Below are positions 5,982 to 38,886 of a stretch of 44,578 nucleotides of DNA, one piece after another. The position numbers were made by a program, and so were the translations under genes. This DNA is from a phage. Numbering within the stretch: the first letter of the stretch is position 1; every line of letters begins with the position of its first letter. The DNA lies in assembly GCA_026776125.1 (NCBI GenBank), contig GCA_026776125.1_4343.1; one strand, 5' to 3'. The notes beneath the pieces were generated by a model. That model was not told where the DNA came from. It searched no databases and saw only the letters and a list, made by a program, of their open reading frames with translations.

Positions 5982-7967
5982 ATGTCAAGCGGATGCGGTG
6001 ACGTTTTAAGCCTGGCGGATTTACAAACCGCCAAGAAACACCAAATTTTTGAAGCCGAGGTTATCACCGGTAAATCCGGCGGGGTTGCTGGTGGCGCCGA
6101 TATTGATTACGCGACCAACCCTGTTACCGGGCAGACCCAGAAGACGCTTCCTGCTGTGTTGCGTGATGCCGGTTTTTCTCCCGTATCGTGGGACTTTTCC
6201 ACCGGCGGTACGTTAACAGTTAATGACCGCGACAAAGTGGTGTATGACCCCGTAAGCAAGACGTGGTACTCATATGCGGGTACGTTGCCGGTTGTTGTTC
6301 CCGCGAGTTTTAATCCAGTCGGTAACGCTAACTGGAAGCCGCAGACAGACCCAAATTTGCGTAATGATTTGGCGTCAAGTACCGCCGGTTTAGGGGCTTC
6401 ACTGGTGTCTTTTTCCAACGGTAACACCGTTGAAACATTATCTGACGCGGAAGGTGCCAAGAACATAGGCAGTGGCGAAAGGAGTTTGCTTGCACGTAAC
6501 AATGATATTAAGCATTCTGGCGACTTTTCTACCCTTCAAGCCGCGGTAGATGCGTCGTTAACTAAAAACGACTTAATTGTTTCTCCGGGTGAGTATACAG
6601 AAGCAATCACTCTGGGTAGTAAGCAGATAAAAGGTGTAGGTGGTGCTGCAATATTAAAACCATCGGCAAACTATGCAAATACTGTACAGGTTAATTTATC
6701 CACCCCGCACTGGCAGTTTCGACACAGCGGTGGTTTTGCCGTAGATGGTACAGGTACAACTGGGGCCGTAGGTATTAGTTTTGACCCGTCAGACCAATAT
6801 TCCGGACGTCATAATTTTAGTGATTTATACATCCACAACATCAACAAGGCCATTCAGAAGCCTTCCGGGAACATCGGCAATACGTGGAGAAGTATTGGGG
6901 TATCTACGTGTGATTGGGGGTATTACGCGATTAGTGGCTCGAAGATGCATTGCGGGGCCGATACCCTCTACAATATCCACTTCGACGGCATCTCCACCTA
7001 TGCCGTCTACCTAAACGGTACTGTCGATAACGGTGGGATAGGCGGATGGTGGCTTAAAGACTCCATTATTGAGGCTTCCGGAGGCGGCGGGATATACTTA
7101 AAAAGCAAATCGGGTGACTGTCCTCCATCTCCATGCGGGGTATCCAATGTATGGATGGAAGCTATTGCAACATCATCGGCTGTTCAGGTAGATGGCGTGG
7201 CGCAAAAACCGCGAGTTCTCAAGTTGGTAGACACCGCGATATTCTTTGCTGAGTATTCTTATCTCAACAACATCGAGCTATCCAACTCCAACTTAGTAAC
7301 TTATGGTTGCCGTTTTGACAACGCTGATGGTAATCAGGATATTGTAGTGGATGCACAAAGCACCATTGTAGCCCACGATGTGTATTTAAACGGCAGTTCT
7401 GGAAAGGACGTTATTGTAGAGTCTGTCGCGTCGCAATCCGCAACGGTAGCCACTACAAACTTGTCTCTACGAGGAAATTTAACAAGGGGACGAGTGTTTA
7501 ATACGCCGACGGGGAATAAGTTAAAAGCTATCACATTTGACTCAGGTAGCCATAGTTTTTCTGGTAGCGGTACCGTTAACGGTTCGACTGTATCTGACGG
7601 ACTTCACGCCGCTACATGTACCGAATTTTCATTCCCTGGGTCCGGTTTATATGAAATGGTAGCGTCAAGAACGACACTTACATCCGGTAGATGGTACGTG
7701 TGGGGTGTCAACTCTCGCCTCCAATCAGGAACAGCAGATGTGAGTATAACGTTAGGTATTACTATGGGTAGCGTTTATACTAAGTCTGGTGAGTGGATTA
7801 GCACATTTGGGGTGGGTAAAGCTTCCGCTAACGGTATTGTAGGTCTGTACGTCTCTACTGGGGGAGGTTCAGGTGCTGTTATCAGATTTAGTGACTTCTT
7901 CATCGCTGAGTTTACGACGCAGGCTCAGGCTTTAGCTTTCGCTAACTCCCGAATGTCGTTGGCTTAA
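5982..7967 (+). CDS. Putative tail fibre / tailspike (receptor-binding) protein
   Basis: 661-aa ORF, last of tail block, Gly/Ser/Thr/Asn-rich repeats suggestive of beta-helix or fibre; followed by terminator. Confidence 0.45.
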   Translation: MSSGCGDVLSLADLQTAKKHQIFEAEVITGKSGGVAGGADIDYATNPVTGQTQKTLPAVLRDAGFSPVSWDFSTGGTLTVNDRDKVVYDPVSKTWYSYAGTLPVVVPASFNPVGNANWKPQTDPNLRNDLASSTAGLGASLVSFSNGNTVETLSDAEGAKNIGSGERSLLARNNDIKHSGDFSTLQAAVDASLTKNDLIVSPGEYTEAITLGSKQIKGVGGAAILKPSANYANTVQVNLSTPHWQFRHSGGFAVDGTGTTGAVGISFDPSDQYSGRHNFSDLYIHNINKAIQKPSGNIGNTWRSIGVSTCDWGYYAISGSKMHCGADTLYNIHFDGISTYAVYLNGTVDNGGIGGWWLKDSIIEASGGGGIYLKSKSGDCPPSPCGVSNVWMEAIATSSAVQVDGVAQKPRVLKLVDTAIFFAEYSYLNNIELSNSNLVTYGCRFDNADGNQDIVVDAQSTIVAHDVYLNGSSGKDVIVESVASQSATVATTNLSLRGNLTRGRVFNTPTGNKLKAITFDSGSHSFSGSGTVNGSTVSDGLHAATCTEFSFPGSGLYEMVASRTTLTSGRWYVWGVNSRLQSGTADVSITLGITMGSVYTKSGEWISTFGVGKASANGIVGLYVSTGGGSGAVIRFSDFFIAEFTTQAQALAFANSRMSLA

Positions 7968-7973
7968 AACTAA

Positions 7974-7996
7974 GGCCCCAAACGGGGCCTTTTCTC
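7974..7996 (+). terminator. Rho-independent terminator (ggcccc-aaac-ggggcc + TTTTCTC)
   Basis: Perfect 6-bp stem plus T-run directly after stop of 5982..7967. Confidence 0.6.
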
Positions 7997-13778: not shown

Positions 13779-13828
13779 CCCTTAGTAAAAAGACCCAATG
13801 AAGGGCCTTAGTTAAATTGATTCAGATA

Positions 13829-17559: not shown

Positions 17560-17775
17560 ATGCAACCATCTGAACTAGGCATCCGTGTAGAACAACGCCG
17601 CAAAGAACTCGGCATCTCCCAGCGCCGTTTGGCGGCCCTGACCGGCGTTTCCCAGGGCGCGATTAACCAACTGGCACTTGGAGTAACTCAGGACGTCCGC
17701 CCGGCAACGCTGTTCAAACTGGCGGAAGTTCTGGAAGTAGACGCCAAGTGGCTGGCGTTAGGTGAAGGGGCTTAA
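17560..17775 (+). CDS. XRE-family (Cro/CI-type) helix-turn-helix transcriptional regulator
   Basis: LGISQRRLAALTGVSQGAINQLALG HTH signature; RBS AAGGAG upstream. Confidence 0.75.
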   Translation: MQPSELGIRVEQRRKELGISQRRLAALTGVSQGAINQLALGVTQDVRPATLFKLAEVLEVDAKWLALGEGA

Positions 17776-17792: not shown

Positions 17793-20051
17793 CTATTCCA
17801 AATCCTCCTCTGTCACCACCAGCATCTCATTTGGTTCGTATAGTGTCTTCGGCCTTAATCTATCCCCTATTCTTTCGGGTATACGATATGTTCTCGGTAC
17901 TACTTCGCCGTTAGCATCGCAACCAAGCATTAGTTCTCCATCTTTCAACATTTTATCAAGATGGGTGTTAGTCACAGAGAAGTCACCGGAACGAGCCACT
18001 ATCTGCTGCTGAGTAAAACCGCGACCTGTGTCATCTGACTGTTGCAGGTCTTCCAGTGCCGAAAGTATTGACTCCTTCCTTACTTCATCCCTGCCGCGTT
18101 TAACTTCTTCCTTTACTTTTTGCTTACCTTCTTTCGTCAACCCTTCTTCCCGCTCTTTCTCCTCGTCAGTTTTGAACGGCTCGAAACCCCACGGCATCAA
18201 CACAAGCGCCTTGTGTGGTTCAGGCAGGTCCAGGTTTACGATTGTGCCGTATTCCTCTGTGCTACCCAGGAACTCAACCGCTCGGTATTCTTTAGGCGGC
18301 GGCGCTTCACGGAACTGTACCGACTCCAGCACCATGCCAACCGTCTTCTGCTGAGGCCCGTGCTTGAATTTCGAGTGATATACGTTTATCTGACGGTCGG
18401 TTGCACGTTCGATTGTCAGTTCCACGTCAACACCCGCATACAGCGCCCCACTGCCGCGTGCTTTCTTTCCACCCTTCGGCGTATGGTGGACAACGCCTAC
18501 TGCGGCTTTAGTTGCATCGCGTACTTCTTTCAGAATGGCGATAACTTTACCCATGCCGATTGCTGTTGATGAACTGTTCTCGTCGAACTTATCAATCGTC
18601 AGGGCCAGCGTCTGGTTAAGGGTGTCGAAGGCAACCATGCCAATAGGTTCATCCCCTGCGGTTTCGCGCATCCTGCGGATTAGAGCTGGAATTTTTTTAT
18701 CACCATGCGTAGCGAGTATTTCGCCCGTATCGATGACATGTACATAATCTTTACCTTCCTCGCCATATTTAGCCGCGAGTGCATCAATACGTGTTCGTGT
18801 AGCTGCACCACCCTCGCCGTCAATATAGAAATGGTGGCAACGTTGGGTGTCAGCCCCCGCAAACCGGTACCCGGCGGCGCTCAGGTACATCATCCCCAGC
18901 GTATAGAATGATTTGTACGTGCCGGATTCCCCGACAATATCCCAGATACAATCCGACGGCATGTACCCCTCAACGACGAAATCAGCCTTTACCGGTTCTG
19001 GTAACTCGTCCTCCTCTGAGTCCTCGTCGTCTTCCAGGTCGTCGAGGCTGCATGAGACAGATTCACGCGCCCCCCAACCGATGGCCTCTGCGACTTCACT
19101 GAACGGCAGCCCGGTCGCATCGCACGCGTACTTCCACACCTCTTTCGGTGACAGGCCTTCTGTCGCCGTAATGTCTGTGTCGTGAATCATGGTTACGTTT
19201 GGCGCTTCATACCCCTCGCGCGGGAAGCACAGCAGGAAGTCGTCCGGGCGCGGTGTCGGGTCGCTGTAGTTTTCGGCATGTTCCGGTGTGGCTGGCATCT
19301 TAAGGCCGCGCGGCGTCATGACGCCGCCGTACTCAAACGCCAGTGCTTCAAACGCGTCTGTAAACGCGGTGCGCAGTTCTTCCGGTATCTGGTAATCCGA
19401 TGCGCTGCTAACGTCAACGGCTGGGATGCCTTCCAGTAACTCGTTCGGGTCGATCAGGTCGTTGCGGCGCGACCAGATAACGGTAGCGCCGACCGGCGGC
19501 AGGTACATCGGCTGCGACAGAGTGAACCCGCTGCGGTCCGCACCCATGCCTTTGAAGAAGTGCTCCAGCAACCCATGACGAACACGGATGATGTCACCAC
19601 CCTCCACCGGACGGGCCAGTGGCATTACGACGCGAAAGCGCGGTGACTCATCAGTATGTGATGCCGTGGTATAGAGGCACATGGCCCAGCGGCTGCGCTT
19701 AACCAGGCGCACCGCTTCCTGATACTCTTCCGGTGTTGTGCTGTCGAAATCCAGATAGGCCAGCGACGATTTGCTTACAGACGCATCGCAGCGGTAGAAA
19801 AAACCTTTACGCGCTTGCTTAAAGTCTCCAGTTTCCGGGTCTTTTACGGTGCTGTGCGTTGAGTCGCACGCGGCGGTGATATAACCGGGCGCGGTCTTAG
19901 GGTTAATCCCGTCGCGAACGGCATCGAGCGGCTGGATTAACTCTTTCAGGTCGTCCAGTGTTGCCGTGTGTGCGGTTCTGACATTTATATCCTTTTTTCC
20001 CGCCCGCGCGTTGCGGCGTGACCACGAGTAGGATAAAATTACATCGGACAT
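17793..20051 (-). CDS. Primase-helicase: N-terminal primase-polymerase-like region plus RecA/DnaB-like ATPase
   Basis: LAYLDFDS (DxD-type motif) in N-terminal half; Walker A GESGTYKSF and Walker B-like VGVVHHTPKGG in C-terminal half. Confidence 0.6.
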   Translation of the reverse strand: MSDVILSYSWSRRNARAGKKDINVRTAHTATLDDLKELIQPLDAVRDGINPKTAPGYITAACDSTHSTVKDPETGDFKQARKGFFYRCDASVSKSSLAYLDFDSTTPEEYQEAVRLVKRSRWAMCLYTTASHTDESPRFRVVMPLARPVEGGDIIRVRHGLLEHFFKGMGADRSGFTLSQPMYLPPVGATVIWSRRNDLIDPNELLEGIPAVDVSSASDYQIPEELRTAFTDAFEALAFEYGGVMTPRGLKMPATPEHAENYSDPTPRPDDFLLCFPREGYEAPNVTMIHDTDITATEGLSPKEVWKYACDATGLPFSEVAEAIGWGARESVSCSLDDLEDDEDSEEDELPEPVKADFVVEGYMPSDCIWDIVGESGTYKSFYTLGMMYLSAAGYRFAGADTQRCHHFYIDGEGGAATRTRIDALAAKYGEEGKDYVHVIDTGEILATHGDKKIPALIRRMRETAGDEPIGMVAFDTLNQTLALTIDKFDENSSSTAIGMGKVIAILKEVRDATKAAVGVVHHTPKGGKKARGSGALYAGVDVELTIERATDRQINVYHSKFKHGPQQKTVGMVLESVQFREAPPPKEYRAVEFLGSTEEYGTIVNLDLPEPHKALVLMPWGFEPFKTDEEKEREEGLTKEGKQKVKEEVKRGRDEVRKESILSALEDLQQSDDTGRGFTQQQIVARSGDFSVTNTHLDKMLKDGELMLGCDANGEVVPRTYRIPERIGDRLRPKTLYEPNEMLVVTEEDLE

Positions 20052-20108
20052 GTTGTATTTCCTTCAGCAAGTAATTTGGCCTCGGCGCTCTAACGCTGGG
20101 GCTTTCTT

Positions 20109-20342
20109 TTATTCCAGGTCTTCTAAAGTGGCTGTCACCCCACGAACTTCGGCAACAGCACTATATCTCCCGCCAACATTTTTCACGACACCAGATTTAA
20201 CCAGCACCTTCAACGACCCTTCAATGATGGCGGAACTATAGTACCTAAAATAACTGCGGCGCAAGTCCATAACGCTGCACGACCCTTTTTTACGTGTTAC
20301 CGAAACAACCGCCGTAAATACGCGTGACTGGAACTCGGTCAT
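20109..20342 (-). CDS. Hypothetical protein (77 aa)
   Basis: ORF with ATGA overlap to upstream HTH gene. Confidence 0.4.
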   Translation of the reverse strand: MTEFQSRVFTAVVSVTRKKGSCSVMDLRRSYFRYYSSAIIEGSLKVLVKSGVVKNVGGRYSAVAEVRGVTATLEDLE

Positions 20343-20533
20343 TTTACATTCTCCTTAATCCACGCTTCTACTTTCTCCGGGTCGAACGTACCAGGCTGCC
20401 GGCGGCCCATAATACGGATACAACAATCCGGGAACTTCCCACTCTTTAACCAGTTATTCAGCGTGCGACGAGTAACCCCGATACGCTCAGCTACCTCATT
20501 CTGTGTCATTCTCAAACCCTCATTATCAGTCAA
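20339..20533 (-). CDS. Small HTH DNA-binding protein
   Basis: VAERIGVTRRTLNNWLKSGKFP HTH-like segment; first gene of leftward operon. Confidence 0.5.
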   Translation of the reverse strand: MTDNEGLRMTQNEVAERIGVTRRTLNNWLKSGKFPDCCIRIMGRRQPGTFDPEKVEAWIKENVK

Positions 20534-20857
20534 CGAAACTTAGTATACATTGCGAATAATGGGAAATCAAACATAATCGCACCTATTGACATTATGAAAA
20601 TCTTCGTTTAAGGTGCTTTTGTATCTTAGTTACTTTGATTCCTGTTCACCTTGTAAAACCGCTTAAAACGCAGCTGCGCGCAGCGCAAGCAAAGTGTTAA
20701 GCGAAAGTTTACTGAACATAAGAATTATCGTAACTTTCCTTCCTAAGTATCTCCGGTTGCCCTGGGCAAGCTCTATTCTCATCGGCAGCATATCTCTTAA
20801 GTATCTGATTTTCTTAATGTGCCGTAGATTCGCAACCGTAAAAATGTAACGATTATT

Positions 20858-20883
20858 GGGCAGGCTTAAGCCTGCCCTTTAGT
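20858..20883. terminator. Perfect 10-bp-stem hairpin (gggcaggctt/aagcctgccc) in divergent intergenic region
   Basis: Palindrome read in sequence; weak T-run after it. Confidence 0.4.
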
Positions 20884-20949
20884 TACCAAGTAATAAGAAT
20901 AAAGGCACAACCCTCCCCGAAGAATCACAACGGCAACGTAACTATTCTC

Positions 20950-20978
20950 TTGCACACCCCAACATAATAGGTTACTAT
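20950..20978 (+). promoter_or_regulatory. Promoter-like element, class II (TTGCAC-N17-TACTAT)
   Basis: Shared with 21751(+), 32092(-), 41325(-); followed by conserved leader CGAAACGAGA and RBS before 21013. Confidence 0.45.
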
Positions 20979-21012
20979 TCACTTATCGAAACGAGACATA
21001 AGGAATTTAGAA

Positions 21013-21231
21013 ATGAACAAAGCGACCGCAAGCGTAGTTTCCGCAATCAAACAAGTTTACGGCATCGATATTTCAGAGCGCGTAATTATCGGGAACAAAC
21101 GCAACTTCTTTACGTTCGGCACCGACGGTATGGATGGAAACGATTTTAACAACGTACAACGTTTCGCTATCGGTAAGGGGCTTCGTAATGAGCCCGCGGG
21201 TTACAAGAAATTCGCTATCTACTTTAAATAA
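21013..21231 (+). CDS. Hypothetical early protein (72 aa)
   Basis: ORF with RBS AAGGAA, downstream of class II promoter. Confidence 0.45.
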   Translation: MNKATASVVSAIKQVYGIDISERVIIGNKRNFFTFGTDGMDGNDFNNVQRFAIGKGLRNEPAGYKKFAIYFK

Positions 21232-28031: not shown

Positions 28032-29501
28032 ATGTTAACTATGAACGGTCAGAATCAGGGTGTTAAGACAAAACACCGGGAATGGCTGCATCACTTCGAT
28101 AAATGGCAGAAGGTACGCCACGCGCTGGAAGGCGACCTTATTCGCTATCTGCGCAACGTCGGGAAGAACGAACCTGACCCGACCTACGCAGCCCAGCGCC
28201 AGGAAGAATACGAGAACGGTGCTATCTGTTACAACTTCACTAAACGTACCCTGGCGGGGATGACGGGGTCAGTGATGCGCAAAGACCCTGAGCAGATTAT
28301 CCCGCCTGAACTTGAGTACCTGTTGCACAACGCTGACGGTTCGGGTGTAGGGCTGTGGCAGCACGCGCAGGATACGTTAATGGAGATTGACTCGGTGGGT
28401 CGTGGCGGGTTGCTGGTGGACGCCCCGGAGACAGCCGCGGCAACGGCAGCCGAACAGAACGCGGGGTTACTAAACCCGGTCATTGCATTCTACACTGCTG
28501 AGAACATCATCAACTGGCGACTGACCCGCATCGGCTCAGTGAACCGTGTGACGATGGTTGTATTGCGTGAGGCATGGGAATACTCGGAACCAGGCGCTGA
28601 GTTTGAAACAAAATTCGGCGAGCAATACCGCGTCCTTGACCTGATTGACGGTCGCTACCGCCAGCGCATCTACCGCTTCGATGCCGAAGGTGGCGCACAG
28701 GATGAAGTAATCGAAATCTTCCCGGAACTCGGCGAACAGTTGCGCGGTAAAATCCCGTTCACGTTCATTGGCGCAAGCAACAACGACGCCACTATAGACG
28801 ATGCGCCTTTACTGCCGTTAGCTGAGCTAAATATAGGACACTTCAGAAATTCGGCCGATGTGGAAGAGGCCAGCTTTATAGTAGGTCAACCGACACTGTT
28901 CATTGCCCCCGGCGAGAACATGAGCATGGAGCAGTGGAAAGAAGCCAACCCACACGGCATACGCATGGGGTCGCGTTCAGGCCACAACATCGGCTCCGGC
29001 GGAAATGCGTTTCTGGTTCAGGCGGCGGAAACTAACCTCGCCAAACAGAATATGCTGGATAAAGAGAATCAGGCCATCCAGATTGGCGCGCAGCTTATCA
29101 CCCCGACGCAGCAAATCACCGCGGAATCGGCCCGCCTGCAACGCGGCGCCGACACGTCAGTCATGGCAACAATAGCACGTAATGTAAGCATGGCGTATAC
29201 CGATGCGTTGCGCTGGGTTGCGGGTATGCTTGGGCTTAGTGAAGATACTGAGATTGAATTCAAGCTGAACATGGAGTTCTTCCTGCAACCGATGACAGCT
29301 CAGGACCGCGCTCAGTGGATGGCGGACATTAACGCAGGCCTGCTACCAGCTACTGCTTACTACGCCGCGTTGCGTAAGGCTGGCGTAACCGACTGGACCG
29401 ATGAAGACATTCAGAACGCTATTGGGGACGCACCGCTGCCGTTGGGTGCGGTTGCTCAGGTAGCAGGAGAAATTCCGCAGTCCTCGCAACAACAGGAGTA
29501 A
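28032..29501 (+). CDS. Portal protein
   Basis: 489-aa ORF directly after terminase large subunit; synteny and size. Confidence 0.65.
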   Translation: MLTMNGQNQGVKTKHREWLHHFDKWQKVRHALEGDLIRYLRNVGKNEPDPTYAAQRQEEYENGAICYNFTKRTLAGMTGSVMRKDPEQIIPPELEYLLHNADGSGVGLWQHAQDTLMEIDSVGRGGLLVDAPETAAATAAEQNAGLLNPVIAFYTAENIINWRLTRIGSVNRVTMVVLREAWEYSEPGAEFETKFGEQYRVLDLIDGRYRQRIYRFDAEGGAQDEVIEIFPELGEQLRGKIPFTFIGASNNDATIDDAPLLPLAELNIGHFRNSADVEEASFIVGQPTLFIAPGENMSMEQWKEANPHGIRMGSRSGHNIGSGGNAFLVQAAETNLAKQNMLDKENQAIQIGAQLITPTQQITAESARLQRGADTSVMATIARNVSMAYTDALRWVAGMLGLSEDTEIEFKLNMEFFLQPMTAQDRAQWMADINAGLLPATAYYAALRKAGVTDWTDEDIQNAIGDAPLPLGAVAQVAGEIPQSSQQQE

Positions 29502-29506
29502 ATAGA

Positions 29507-29532
29507 AAGGCCCCGCTAGGGGCCTTAGTTTT
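29507..29532. terminator. Bidirectional hairpin terminator (aaggcccc-gcta-ggggcctt)
   Basis: 8-bp stem between convergent genes (portal + and 29531..30184 -). Confidence 0.6.
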
Positions 29533-30184
29533 AACGTATATTAGCCGCACATTTACGCACAACCCGAGGTATCGCCTCTTTCAGTTCACCCCATGTATTA
29601 ACGGCCTCCATGTCAAGAAGCGTCACCAGAGCTTTCTGGATGTCACTTCGCAACTGATTGGTCTTCGCATCCTGAGAGTCCCATGTATCGAAACCCGTTA
29701 CGTCGCGGATATCTACGGATTCCTTTACCGCTTTAGCCACCTGTATGAAGTGTCCACTGTGGCCAATTCTTCCCTCCGTGCGCTCGATCATTCGACTAAC
29801 GGCAGCGTTAAGCTCGACAAAGCTCACCGCGCCAATGTTTCGTAGTTCTACCTGCCGTTGTGTGATAAAGCGGTCGATAACGAGGAAATGGAAATAGGCG
29901 CTGTATTGCTCAGCAATATATACTGCCAGATGGAGACATGCAAAGGTGCGACCGTTTCGGCCTTTCGTCGCCCTTATGGCATTCTCGATTCCGAGTTGTT
30001 TTTCGCATTCCTCCTTGAAAATCTTGAAGCCATCCGTTGCCATGACCTGGCGAAGCTCTCTGGCCCCCATGCCGTTGTCTAAACGCCAACGGTTCATCTG
30101 GTCAACCAGCTCGTTTACGTTAATAAAGTTTTCACGGTCAAAAGTGATTTCTCCATAAGGGAACTCTAATGTTTGCAGTTTCAT
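29531..30184 (-). CDS. KilA-N-like domain protein (moron on opposite strand)
   Basis: N-terminal region ending GRTFACLHLAVYIAEQYSAYF resembles KilA-N domain signature; unknown C-terminal domain. Confidence 0.4.
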   Translation of the reverse strand: MKLQTLEFPYGEITFDRENFINVNELVDQMNRWRLDNGMGARELRQVMATDGFKIFKEECEKQLGIENAIRATKGRNGRTFACLHLAVYIAEQYSAYFHFLVIDRFITQRQVELRNIGAVSFVELNAAVSRMIERTEGRIGHSGHFIQVAKAVKESVDIRDVTGFDTWDSQDAKTNQLRSDIQKALVTLLDMEAVNTWGELKEAIPRVVRKCAANIR

Positions 30185-31370: not shown

Positions 31371-31831
31371 TGATGGGCTTTTTCAAAGTAACTGATGTGC
31401 CGTCACGTCGCGTAGTCCAGTACGCTCGGGTGTCTGGCTCCGGTGAGAACGTAACCTACGTTGAGGATGAAAGTGTACTAGGTACACCTGTAGACGAGAT
31501 GCCGTGCGCAGACAAGACAGGTATCGCACTCTCTGCCGCTGGTATGCTTTATGAAATTCCGTATCTGGCGGACGCTGGTGACGTGTATCTCTCTGCGCAA
31601 CCGCAGGACGCTGAACTGGCGGGCGGCAGCGCAACCATCACTGTCGAGGTTAAGGCAGGCAAAGCGCCGTATTCTTCGACCTGGTACAAAGACGGTAAGG
31701 AAGTGGTGAATGTGCCTGAGGAGTCTCTGTCTCTGACGGTTAATGCGGTCGGCGAATACTTCGTTAAAGTTACTGATGCCGATGGAGTAGAGGCGGTAAG
31801 CAAAGCGGCGAAGGTTACTAAGCCAGAATGA
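31370..31831 (+). CDS. Ig-like domain protein (possible head decoration/accessory)
   Basis: C-terminal region (ATITVEVKAGKAPYSSTWYKDGKEV...GEYFVKVTDADG) parallels Ig-like domain of 34833..35174. Confidence 0.4.
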   Translation: MMGFFKVTDVPSRRVVQYARVSGSGENVTYVEDESVLGTPVDEMPCADKTGIALSAAGMLYEIPYLADAGDVYLSAQPQDAELAGGSATITVEVKAGKAPYSSTWYKDGKEVVNVPEESLSLTVNAVGEYFVKVTDADGVEAVSKAAKVTKPE

Positions 31832-31834
31832 TAA

Positions 31835-31862
31835 AAGGCCCCATTATGGGGCCTTAGTTTTC
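31835..31862. terminator. Bidirectional hairpin terminator (aaggcccca-tta-tggggcctt)
   Basis: 9-bp stem between convergent genes. Confidence 0.55.
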
Positions 31863-32064
31863 AACGGAATCTTGTGTTTAAATCCTGCTCATGGACAACC
31901 CTCAGAACAGTGTCATAATCCCCGTATCTTCCAGGTTCAAATATATCTAATGCCTTGTAAGCAGACATTGCGTCAGGGAAAACCTGCAGAACCTTTTTAA
32001 CCCGGCACAAGTCACCGTCGAACTCTTCATCGAACTCTTGAACTACTTCGCAAATTGCATACAT
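31861..32064 (-). CDS. Hypothetical acidic protein (67 aa), opposite-strand insert
   Basis: ORF with RBS AGGAGG, driven by class II promoter element at 32092. Confidence 0.45.
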   Translation of the reverse strand: MYAICEVVQEFDEEFDGDLCRVKKVLQVFPDAMSAYKALDIFEPGRYGDYDTVLRVVHEQDLNTRFR

Positions 32065-32091
32065 TTTTCACCTCCTGTTTAAGTTAACTGA

Positions 32092-32120
32092 ATAGTACCC
32101 TATTATATTGGGGTGTGCAA
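32092..32120 (-). promoter_or_regulatory. Promoter-like element, class II (TTGCAC-N17-TACTAT on minus strand)
   Basis: Near-identical to 41325(-) and 20950(+). Confidence 0.5.
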
Positions 32121-32395
32121 ACTATTTATTTACGTATTCCAGTTATTCCTCCGAATTGTAAATGTTGGAATAAACTATTCGAATAGTTGACTTTTCACTA
32201 AAAATATGATAAGCTCCACCTGAGCTTGTGAAGTATGAACAAGCGACCGCGGCGCGGGCAGGTAACGGAGCGGGACGTAAGTCCTGAGTGTAGTTACGCT
32301 GACGCGTTCGGAAGGGCCATACTCTATTGCTTGTGTAAAAAGTAACTGGTTTACTGAGATTACGCCGTTTCTATGTTTAAATGATAAGGACTAGC

Positions 32396-32418
32396 GCCCC
32401 GCTTTATGGCGGGGCTTT
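32396..32418 (+). terminator. Rho-independent terminator (gccccgc-tttatg-gcggggc + TTT)
   Basis: 7-bp GC stem plus T-run, 20 nt before Rz start. Confidence 0.5.
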
Positions 32419-32439
32419 ACTTATCGAGAAAGGGGAAAC

Positions 32440-32826
32440 ATGAATCTTAAAGCAACTGTCGTAGCAGGAGCATGTTTCATCATCCTGGTTTACGCACACG
32501 GCATCTACCAGTATCGCAGCGGATGGAACGAAGGCCGGGCTAATCTCGTTTCGCAGCAACAGCAGAAAGCACAGACTGAGTTAGCGAAGAAAACACAACG
32601 GCAGCAGCAGGATGAATCGAAGGCCGCCGCCGCTGACAACGAAGGCAAGACGAAATCAGAGGTGATTATCCGTGAAGTCGTTAAGTACATTAAAACGCCT
32701 GGTCGCAGCGTGTGCACTTTTGACGATGCTCGCGTCCTGCTCAAGTCCCGCGCCGTCGCCAACGCCAATTCCATCCCCGGATACGACGATGATGCAGCCG
32801 CCGTGCAAGCTGGCGCCACCAAGTAG
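32440..32826 (+). CDS. i-spanin (Rz-like)
   Basis: N-terminal transmembrane segment (ATVVAGACFIILVYAHGIY) followed by Q/K/E-rich predicted coiled coil. Confidence 0.6.
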   Translation: MNLKATVVAGACFIILVYAHGIYQYRSGWNEGRANLVSQQQQKAQTELAKKTQRQQQDESKAAAADNEGKTKSEVIIREVVKYIKTPGRSVCTFDDARVLLKSRAVANANSIPGYDDDAAAVQAGATK

Positions 32827-37689: not shown

Positions 37690-38856
37690 ATGGCTACAAC
37701 TCCTTTTAAGGGCGCGAATACCGCGCAATTCTATGTGGCGGAAGTGACCCCGGGCGTAACACCGGCTAACCCGGTATGGTCGCCGTTGCGCAACACGGGC
37801 GGCGTTCCTGCCATTACCCGCGACACGCTGACCTCCAACGAACTCGACGGCAGCCGTGAAACTACATCCATCCGCACCGGTAACAAACAGGTTAGCGGTG
37901 AATACGCAATTGAGCTTAGCTCTAAAAGCCAGGATGACTGGTTGGCAGGTGCTTTAGGCTCTACGTGGCAATCCGGTGTTTCTCTGTCAGGACTATCGAT
38001 CACCGTCGCACCCGCGGGCAAGACGTTCACACGCGCTACCGGCAGTTTTATCACTGACGGAGTTGGGGTAGGCGACCTGATTGCGTTTACCGACTTAACA
38101 GGCGATAACGCAAAACCATTTATTGTTACCGCAGTAACGGCTACGGTTGTTACTGGTGCGGGCATCCAACACACCCTGACCACCGAGACAAAAACTAGTA
38201 AGGCTAAAACTGGCGACACGTTGGAAACCGGTAACACGTGTAAGACGTTCTCTATCCTTACCTGGTACAAAGGCCAGTGCGGCGGTACTGACGCGTACAC
38301 GTTAACCAAAGGCGTGGAAGTTTCTGGTTTTACCATCGAACAGGCTGTTAACGCGATGGTAACTGGCAGCTTCCCATTCATCGGTCGCAGTCAGGAGATT
38401 CTCACTACGCCGCCGACCGGTTCCAACTTCTCATCTGTTACTTTTGGTGATGAGCCGTTCTCTTCGGTTGACGTTTCCGTGTTCGACGGCTCTACGCCGT
38501 TGCGTTGCGACAGTCTGACTATCACCAACGATAACAGCGCGTCCGCGCAGTTTGAACTTGGTAACACTAACGTAGCGTTTGTGGAGCGTAGCCGTGCAGC
38601 TAACACCTTCTCCATCTCCGGTAAGCTGTATGACATGGCGATGATTCAGAAGTTTATCAACGAGCAGCAGGTAGAGATTAACTCTATTCTGGCAGGGGTA
38701 AACGGGGCTATGTCTTTCAGTTTGAAACGTGCAGAGCTTACGGCGGTTACACCTGAGATTGGTGGGCCTGAGTCAATCACTCAGTCCATTGAAGGCCAGG
38801 CTACCGGCAATCAGTACCAGTCGTCTATCGTAATTCAACGTATCACCTACGCATAA
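37690..38856 (+). CDS. Putative major tail protein
   Basis: 389-aa ORF preceding the chaperone and tape measure genes; RBS AAGAGG; followed by strong terminator. Confidence 0.5.
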   Translation: MATTPFKGANTAQFYVAEVTPGVTPANPVWSPLRNTGGVPAITRDTLTSNELDGSRETTSIRTGNKQVSGEYAIELSSKSQDDWLAGALGSTWQSGVSLSGLSITVAPAGKTFTRATGSFITDGVGVGDLIAFTDLTGDNAKPFIVTAVTATVVTGAGIQHTLTTETKTSKAKTGDTLETGNTCKTFSILTWYKGQCGGTDAYTLTKGVEVSGFTIEQAVNAMVTGSFPFIGRSQEILTTPPTGSNFSSVTFGDEPFSSVDVSVFDGSTPLRCDSLTITNDNSASAQFELGNTNVAFVERSRAANTFSISGKLYDMAMIQKFINEQQVEINSILAGVNGAMSFSLKRAELTAVTPEIGGPESITQSIEGQATGNQYQSSIVIQRITYA

Positions 38857-38860
38857 AACT

Positions 38861-38886
38861 AAGGCCCCTTTCGGGGCCTTTTTCTT
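38861..38886. terminator. Bidirectional hairpin terminator (aaggcccc-tttc-ggggcctt + TTTTCTT)
   Basis: 8-bp stem between convergent major tail gene and minus-strand cassette. Confidence 0.65.

Follow-up and report, generated by a model that had tools for sequence, protein, structure and literature searches.

A predicted promoter-to-terminator RNA unit in the divergent control region of Guernseyvirinae phages

Phage contig GCA_026776125.1_4343.1 (NCBI GenBank assembly GCA_026776125.1; 44,578 nt, referred to here in its entirety as the window) contains a gap of about 500 bp between a leftward replication operon and a rightward series of early genes. What does this gap, which is free of long open reading frames (ORFs), encode or control? 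The original prediction, made from the letters of the window, described positions 20534–21012 as a divergent control region that might produce a small RNA of about 250 nt, act as a replication origin or serve as a hub for regulator binding. Judged from sequence comparison, the gap is a three-promoter control region (P_L, P_X and P_R), in which P_X would drive a folded non-coding RNA of ~265 nt, X1, ending at an intrinsic-terminator-like hairpin, t_X. The small RNA is the option that the evidence favours, through a promoter and a terminator in the same orientation ~265 nt apart, recurrence of the unit and covarying stems. We infer, at roughly even confidence, that X1 is a cis-acting leader that gates read-through into the rightward genes by attenuation or processive antitermination.

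The window comes from a Kagunavirus (Guernseyvirinae). All the best matches of a 1-kb stretch around the gap, for which megablast returned 346 phage records, were to Kagunavirus, a group of siphoviruses that infect E. coli and have close kin in Salmonella Jerseyvirus. The ORF-free gap spans 20510–21012 (503 bp), and its left border was moved from 20534 to 20510 because relatives annotate the adjoining helix-turn-helix (HTH) gene as 171 bp from an ATG at 20509. With this change of border, the statement that the gap holds no ORF of at least 60 amino acids (aa) stands, and the sequence features listed in the original prediction are all present at coordinates shifted by 1–3 bp. For comparison, 44 related loci were retrieved from IMG/VR via the HTH protein and their gaps aligned.

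The RNA unit embedded in the gap

P_X, the predicted promoter of the unit, lies on the plus strand at 20586–20614, essentially where a TTGACA-N17-TAAGGT candidate had been proposed. It comprises TTGACA (20586–20591), a 17-nt spacer and TAAGGT (20609–20614), and so resembles a sigma-70-type promoter with a perfect -35 (6/6), a spacer of 17 and a weak -10 (3/6, with A2 and T6 kept), a score under the cut-off of our consensus scan. TTGACA is invariant in the window's allele type (type A) and in Jerseyvirus, where the -10 reads TAAGTT instead of TAAGGT at the same 17-nt spacing. A type B allele of unrelated sequence has TTGACT-N17-TAAGCT at the equivalent position, and an extended -10 TG is found in addition in types B, K and S. 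Hexamers alone occur at chance level (2 promoter-like sites by consensus scan, 3.2 expected). The pattern TTGAC-N17-19-TAAGNT, on the other hand, occurs twice in the 44.6-kb window against 0.35 expected, and each occurrence heads an RNA unit. Terminator-like hairpins are enriched (10 against 3.1 expected).

One such hairpin is t_X (20846–20886, plus strand; terminator scan), which consists of an outer helix GUAAC/GUUAC, a stem-loop GGGCAGGC-UUAA-GCCUGCCC at 20858–20877 and a tail UUUAGUU. In DNA this is the perfect hairpin noted originally, a 20-nt palindrome GGGCAGGCTTAAGCCTGCCC at 20858–20877 followed by TTTAGTT. It has the properties of an intrinsic (Rho-independent) terminator: an 8-bp stem with 7 GC pairs, a loop of 4 and a tail that is U-rich on the plus strand only. 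The U-tract is interrupted, and it is absent in SETP3-type alleles; four sequences carry a compensatory C-G to U-A change in the stem. Types A and B1 have a hairpin with a U-rich tail at this position, and B2 and SETP3-type alleles have a strong hairpin there without a good U-tract. P_X and t_X point the same way and lie ~265 nt apart, a layout retained even in alleles with no alignable sequence. Three features, namely the promoter, the hairpin and the second copy of TAAGTATCT, are conserved in over 40 relatives and are therefore non-random.

The predicted RNA X1 (20621–20886, plus strand), supported by folding, paired alignment columns and the lack of a conserved ORF, has a minimum free energy (MFE) of -78.2 kcal/mol with z = -4.4; the opposite strand scores z = -3.7. 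From 5' to 3' it would comprise a long hairpin, a nearly invariant middle and the U-tract hairpin. A plain MAFFT alignment of 17 sequences gave 48 pairs for the whole RNA that are 99.1% paired, against 29–47% with slid partners, and compensatory changes in 3 of the 48, including the terminator stem.

Domain 1 (20628–20736, 109 nt) is the long irregular hairpin, defined by folds and a covariance model. Its AGUUAC/GUAACU base is invariant, its asymmetric CCUU internal loop is conserved and its tip is hypervariable in sequence and length yet always paired; folded one by one, all 24 distinct variants adopt the same structure. The palindrome CTGCGCGCAG reported at 20677–20686 is present at 20674–20683, where it forms the tip in the window's variant and is not kept as sequence. 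In MAFFT alignments neither the tip of the hairpin nor, in Jerseyvirus, the lower stem came into register, and 22 Kagunavirus and Jerseyvirus copies were therefore aligned with a covariance model. In that alignment, which is fitted to the model and so biased to structure, 96.4% of the cells of 28 pairs are paired (25–44% when slid), 10 of the 28 pairs show changes on both sides (50 cells), and the observed covariation score was matched by none of 500 shuffles. It agrees with both controls, slid and shuffled, and with the folds computed independently for each sequence, and the variants include a compensatory base-pair insertion.

The middle part (20737–20845) is highly conserved, being 89–90% identical between Kagunavirus and Jerseyvirus. 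It contains a hairpin UUGCC-CUG-GGCAA (20757–20769), a GCUCUAUUC box (20770–20778), a helix CGGCA/UGCCG (20783–20787 with 20819–20823), a hairpin UUAAG/CUUAA that bears the second copy of TAAGTATCT, and a AGAUUCGC box. The two TAAGTATCT copies of the original prediction were found at 20744–20752 and 20798–20806, as parts of a 12-nt pair, TCCTAAGTATCT and TCTTAAGTATCT, 54 bp apart. A CU-rich single-stranded tract lies at 20734–20744. The GCUCUAUUC box is similar to boxA (GCUCUUUA), which we treat as a lead only.

Substitutions in helices 4, 7 and 8 of the middle part are of the G.U-only kind. In all, there are four A-U to G.U changes, in four helices, each of which would be an A.C mismatch in a minus-strand RNA, and the terminator tails are U-rich on the plus strand alone. 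Since promoter, terminator tail and G.U changes all indicate the same strand, the RNA would be read from the plus strand.

The unit appears not to encode protein. Three small ORFs in the gap (42, 51 and 38 aa) were considered as a protein-coding gene and rejected, all three being interrupted by stops or frameshifts in close relatives. In the annotated relatives that we inspected the stretch is always empty or filled with spurious small ORFs.

Database searches gave X1 no known family. The covariance-model search against RNA families that had been suggested as a check returned no Rfam 15 match at gathering threshold anywhere in the window, and at E ≤ 10 the best hits for 20400–21100 and 32050–32460 scored 15–22 bits against thresholds of 35–70. 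The window contains no tRNA or tmRNA, and E. coli genomes contain no homologue of X1. Among 298 fetched loci, nhmmer found members of the RNA family only in Guernseyvirinae-like contigs. When viral and genome collections were scanned for a 14-base motif of the family, most matches were due to chance. A type A 23-mer recovered 13 metagenomic contigs, of which the full-length ones are ~38–45 kb and Kagunavirus-like, with no new variants. Mimicry of CRISPR repeats was also considered: scattered 6–7-mers are similar to the I-F repeat, as is the stem of the K-type terminator to the stem of the I-E repeat, but these likenesses are non-contiguous and, by eye, were judged coincidence. The gap region is unmentioned in the Guernseyvirinae literature that we searched, and within that literature X1 and X2 (described below) are a previously undescribed, phage-specific modular unit.

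Comparison among relatives thus shows, at the level of sequence, a promoter-to-terminator architecture, a common fold, absent coding capacity and membership in a modular Guernseyvirinae RNA family. On these grounds RNA X1 is predicted to be a structured, phage-specific non-coding RNA.

Allele types and a second unit before the late genes

The gap is 455–505 bp long in most relatives, ~140 bp longer in loci L004 and L013 and apparently longer in about ten Jerseyvirus-type loci. Its two ends are conserved in all relatives, and the ~370 bp between them exist as several allele types. Some Kagunavirus members carry type A, which also occurs in Jerseyvirus at 75–80% identity. Types B1 and B2 have only the last ~90 bp in common with type A, and a 44-nt block is common to types A and B2 (z = 7.9). 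Chimeras exist in which an A-type 5' part is joined to a B-type 3' part (L005 and L015) or another 5' module to the A-type 3' part (L018 and L025). Type A and the SETP3 version have in common a short AGAUUCGC..CGUA..AUGUWWAC box.

Far from being poorly conserved, the arrangement is kept in more than 40 relatives. Between Kagunavirus and Jerseyvirus the 3' half of the RNA (20738–20890) is 89–96% identical, compared with 87–88% for the HTH gene, 68–71% for the neighbouring 77-aa gene and 63–70%, with compensation, for domain 1. By this measure the 3' half is conserved at least as well as the flanking genes.

Parts of the region are exchanged as a cassette. In L043, compared with 19000–21231 of the window, the helicase-primase is 96% and the first rightward gene 100% identical, and between them the 77-aa gene, the HTH gene (71% nucleotide identity) and the 5' part of the RNA are replaced jointly, giving a type B RNA. 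The swap is reminiscent of an immunity or specificity module, here in a virulent phage. Variants of the HTH protein follow the allele of the adjacent region, with a recognition helix TRRTL or TRQTI according to allele type; linkage alone could explain this co-inheritance.

Several alleles have peculiarities of their own. In the type B2 alleles L023, L026, L027, L032, L035 and L044 the RNA unit contains a (CTCA)n microsatellite, variable in copy number, whose sequence complements the GGAGTGAG ribosome-binding region in front of the first gene on the right (MFKKGQL...). The extra ~140 bp of L004 and L013 lie between the HTH gene and P_L and apparently hold a small leftward ORF. SETP3-type alleles (L016, L017, L033, L040 and L003) look as if a GTAACTGA box in the middle of the RNA had been joined to another before P_R by a deletion that took out the terminator. 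In Jerseyvirus L022 and L028 both parts are present and the gap, with no ORF of at least 45 aa, is much longer.

The second predicted unit, RNA X2 (32187–32426, plus strand), was found by pattern scan and homology. It has a promoter TTGACT-N17-TAAGCT with an extended -10 TG, a ~200-nt leader and a terminator, GCCCCGC-UUUAU-GGCGGGGC-UUUACUUAU, that ends ~13 nt before the start codon of Rz (32440). Between this terminator and Rz there is a ribosome-binding site only, and we found no promoter there; upstream of X2 lie a bidirectional terminator and a leftward gene. X2 is homologous to type B alleles of the gap locus (local alignment z = 37). One form of X2 is 95–100% identical in 181 records and a diverged allele is 93–100% identical in nearly all of 269 records; together the two cover essentially every Guernseyvirinae genome in the collection. 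When folded individually, both forms and the type B alleles present the same helices in different sequences, and at both loci the promoter is followed on the same strand, at 200–265 nt, by a U-tract hairpin. Because the X2 hairpin adjoins Rz with no intervening promoter, the Rz/Rz1, scaffold and capsid genes need read-through. The X2 unit is, by its predicted position and layout, physically a leader of these late genes.

The surroundings of X2 hold further elements. Just upstream of its -35 is an inverted repeat, TATTCCAGTTATTCC ... GGAATA (window 32136–32172; 1690–1730 in L090), kept in the Kagunavirus and SETP3 versions despite differing promoters, to which an activator or repressor of the late promoter could bind. 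A 67-aa leftward gene (31861–32064, minus strand; PHROG 27256) with a P_R-type promoter lies between the head genes and X2 and is absent from SETP3 at that place. Near-identical hairpins, AAAGGCCCC-loop-GGGGCCTTAGTTTT, mark gene-block borders at 7964–7993, 13783–13815, 29501–29534, 31831–31861 and 38851–38886; some are inside the rightward late block, and late transcription must therefore cope with them.

Flanking promoters and genes

The description of the gap as a divergent control region is borne out by P_L and P_R, which lie at its opposite ends and are conserved in all relatives. P_L, predicted by consensus scan as TTGATT-N17-TATACT on the minus strand (20570→20542), would direct transcription leftward into the HTH/replication operon; its hexamers AGTATA and AATCAA/AGCAA are preserved across all allele types. 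P_R (20950–20979, plus strand) would direct transcription rightward into the early genes. Kept in all relatives, it combines hexamers TTGCAC-N17-TACTAT (20950–20978) with an overlapping, operator-like palindrome AATAG-GTTA-CTATT. The spacer upstream of it (20887–20949, plus strand, including GAATCACAACGGCAACGTAACTAT) is 78–97% identical across genera, and its final ~30 bp, from ~20920, are also retained in type B alleles. GTAACTATTC and GTTACTATTC stand on either side of P_R.

The P_R module recurs as TTGCACACCCCAAYATAATAG-NN-TACTATTCA at 20950 and 21750 on the plus strand and at 32120 and 41353 on the minus strand. Its palindrome, AATAG-N4-CTATT, is found at about eight promoters in the genome, including over the -10 of four minus-strand TTGACA-N17-TATAGT promoters (10958, 14526, 17466 and 17515). 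From this distribution the module is predicted to be a general promoter and operator of the phage, and a phage regulator, of which the Cro/CI-like protein at 17560–17775 is one candidate, probably uses the palindrome as its operator. The idea of a regulator-binding hub thus survives for the P_R end and fails elsewhere in the gap.

In annotated relatives the leftward operon consists of the 171-bp 'HTH / excisionase-like' gene, a 77-aa 'replication protein' and a 750-aa helicase-primase, and a series of small early genes follows on the right. The first gene of the leftward operon (20339–20509, minus strand, start ATG 20509) was assigned by translation, Pfam and PHROG to a 56-aa MerR/Xis-like HTH_17 protein (Pfam HTH_17, E = 2e-7; PHROG 'excisionase and transcriptional regulator'). 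Foldseek, run with a single-sequence AlphaFold model (pLDDT 76), listed RacA, Xis and BldC as top matches, all with E > 0.03 and none significant. Searches of PDB sequences gave nothing with E < 0.45, and there was no match to Pfam Phage_AlpA at E ≤ 0.01.

Candidate functions and relation to known systems

How would such a unit act? Polymerases that start at P_X would terminate at t_X and so yield a stable small RNA of ~265 nt, or would continue into the rightward operon, and the folded leader would set this choice, alone or with the cassette-linked small HTH protein, the 77-aa protein or both. In SETP3-type alleles the hairpin has no U-tract, and so their RNA must continue into the early genes; moreover, the rightward gene block contains more intrinsic terminators. 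A cis-acting leader is favoured because of these three observations together: the layout of X2, the run-on of SETP3-type RNA and the terminators inside the rightward block. In a bolder version, which we consider unlikely, X1 and X2 would be processive antiterminators of a new, RNA-based class, perhaps with the co-inherited MerR/Xis-like protein as partner. The host RNA polymerase would then ignore the many intrinsic terminators of the rightward block, driving the early-to-late programme of this virulent coliphage subfamily, and the allele cassettes would be specificity types.

Several findings weigh against the cis-acting leader or the evidence behind it. With P_R placed downstream of t_X, expression of the early genes is not strictly dependent on read-through from P_X. 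The -10 of P_X is weak enough for the consensus scan to have overlooked the promoter. No antiterminator protein is recognisable in the annotation of a well-annotated relative or among five neighbouring window proteins, and the HTH protein has a generic MerR/Xis-like fold. Similarity between type A and the second locus is weak (z ~1), the link being made via chimeric type B2 alleles. Domain 1 folds about equally well on both strands (the plus strand is more stable in 15 of 24 variants, the minus strand in several Jerseyvirus variants), so that domain 1 by itself would also fit an antisense RNA or a hairpin in DNA. Few independent events, chiefly in one Jerseyvirus lineage, account for the covariation in the 3' half. 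Finally, the one Kagunavirus RNA-seq paper gives gene-level counts only.

The same unit could instead be a stand-alone trans-acting small RNA, made early from P_X and ending at t_X, that serves as a pairing regulator, sponge or decoy of host or phage mRNAs or proteins, with any effect on downstream transcription incidental. The complete promoter-to-terminator unit and the fact that the downstream genes have their own P_R would suit this, as would the near-invariant 3' half, which is what one expects of a sequence-specific interaction surface, and the CU-rich single-stranded tract at 20734–20744. However, a duplex search of the conserved middle against 115 phage translation-initiation regions did no better than shuffled queries, with returned energies that looked inflated, and the lack of an E. 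coli homologue argues against mimicry of a host RNA. The corresponding unit at 32187 has the position of a leader, and no terminator is present in SETP3-type alleles. We regard the trans-acting RNA as quite possible but less likely than the cis-acting leader. It is very unlikely that there is no functional RNA at all and that the conserved blocks and the GTWAC and TAAGTATCT motifs are DNA sites for phage regulators, such as the Xis/BldC-like HTH protein, whose relatives bind direct repeats, with the hairpins as operator by-products. GTWACTWT does occur four times in 350 bp and 15 times in the window against 5.6 expected; GTAACTATTC and GTTACTATTC flank P_R, the HTH protein has a MerR/Xis-like fold and P_R carries the genome-wide operator palindrome. 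Yet most GTAAC/GTTAC copies form the opposite sides of helices, namely in domain 1 and in the outer helix of the terminator. Compensatory changes, a compensatory pair insertion and an always-paired variable tip are unlike protein operators, and the conserved promoter-terminator polarity requires a transcript.

A replication origin, the other role put forward originally, now looks quite unlikely. The P_X transcript might prime DNA synthesis, as at the T7 primary origin or with ColE1 RNA II, or an extruded hairpin might load the helicase-primase. The region adjoins the helicase-primase and a gene annotated as 'replication protein', the phage's replication proteins are T7-like, GC content drops to 0.33–0.45 (lowest, 0.33, over the promoters), the cumulative GC skew has its minimum near 21000 and domain 1 folds on both strands. 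The predicted promoter-driven structured transcript in an AT-richer gap would fit the T7 and ColE1 systems, and the hypervariable hairpin tip has a parallel in the specificity loops of ColE1 RNA II. Against this, gene direction changes at the skew minimum, which makes the GC-skew check uninformative; the region has one 1-mismatch DnaA box, with a genome-wide count at chance; and its short repeats are two-copy only, with no array of at least three direct repeats, and so no iterons. Moreover, the middle of the gap is replaced by unrelated sequence in a phage whose helicase-primase is 96% identical, a homologous unit stands before Rz in the late region, and the asymmetric CCUU loop and G.U-only substitutions suit a single-stranded plus-strand RNA. 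In the exchange of X1 with the helicase-primase kept and in its late paralogue, the unit thus differs from both T7 and ColE1.

If X1 and X2 do act in cis on termination, they have several counterparts. In the late leader of phage lambda the constitutive sigma-70 promoter P_R', ahead of the lysis and structural genes, gives a 194-nt '6S' RNA that ends at t_R' and is read through under Q. X2 is similar in having a promoter, a short leader and a terminator directly before Rz. The leaders described here differ in their strong, conserved RNA structure, a feature that Q does not need, and in that X1 heads early genes and is followed by a second promoter. No Q-like gene was recognisable in the annotation of a well-annotated relative or among the five neighbouring window proteins scanned.

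The put elements of HK022, which are cis-acting, RNA-only processive antiterminators, likewise occur as two related folded RNAs per genome, just downstream of host-type promoters of operons with terminators. They are set apart, by description, in that put measures ~65–70 nt and has two stem-loops, whereas X1 and X2 measure 200–265 nt and have another architecture. A published statement names put, EAR and conAn2 as the only known RNA antiterminators (PMC8191782). In the conAn system of Gram-positive conjugative plasmids, a protein, ConAn1, works with a 260–600-nt RNA region, conAn2 (PMC8191782). Like conAn, the phage locus would combine a small co-encoded protein with a long structured leader that is poorly conserved, and its sequences diverge in a modular fashion; host range, element type and protein families are different.

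AlpA of Pseudomonas aeruginosa is a small winged-helix antiterminator with two target promoters and an intrinsic terminator just before the first gene (PMC7969949). The phage also encodes a small HTH protein nearby and has two promoters, each with a terminator just upstream of the first gene. Unlike AlpA, its protein is without AlpA-specific sequence or fold similarity, and by eye the spacers of P_X and the X2 promoter have no motif in common. Neither sequence nor fold singles out AlpA: the protein matches Pfam HTH_17 only, PDB sequences at E ≥ 0.45 and, best among folds, RacA, Xis and BldC.

Guernseyvirinae (Kagunavirus and Jerseyvirus) are common therapy and biocontrol phages with ~450 GenBank genomes, and their gene regulation is essentially unstudied. 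If the proposed cis action on termination is true, the family described here would be a fourth RNA-based processive antiterminator. Its modular alleles provide natural swap experiments. A conserved, structured RNA that precedes the early as well as the late rightward genes would offer a handle on how expression is timed with the host polymerase only. For phage engineering, it would mean that the element in the gap is not free space for insertions.

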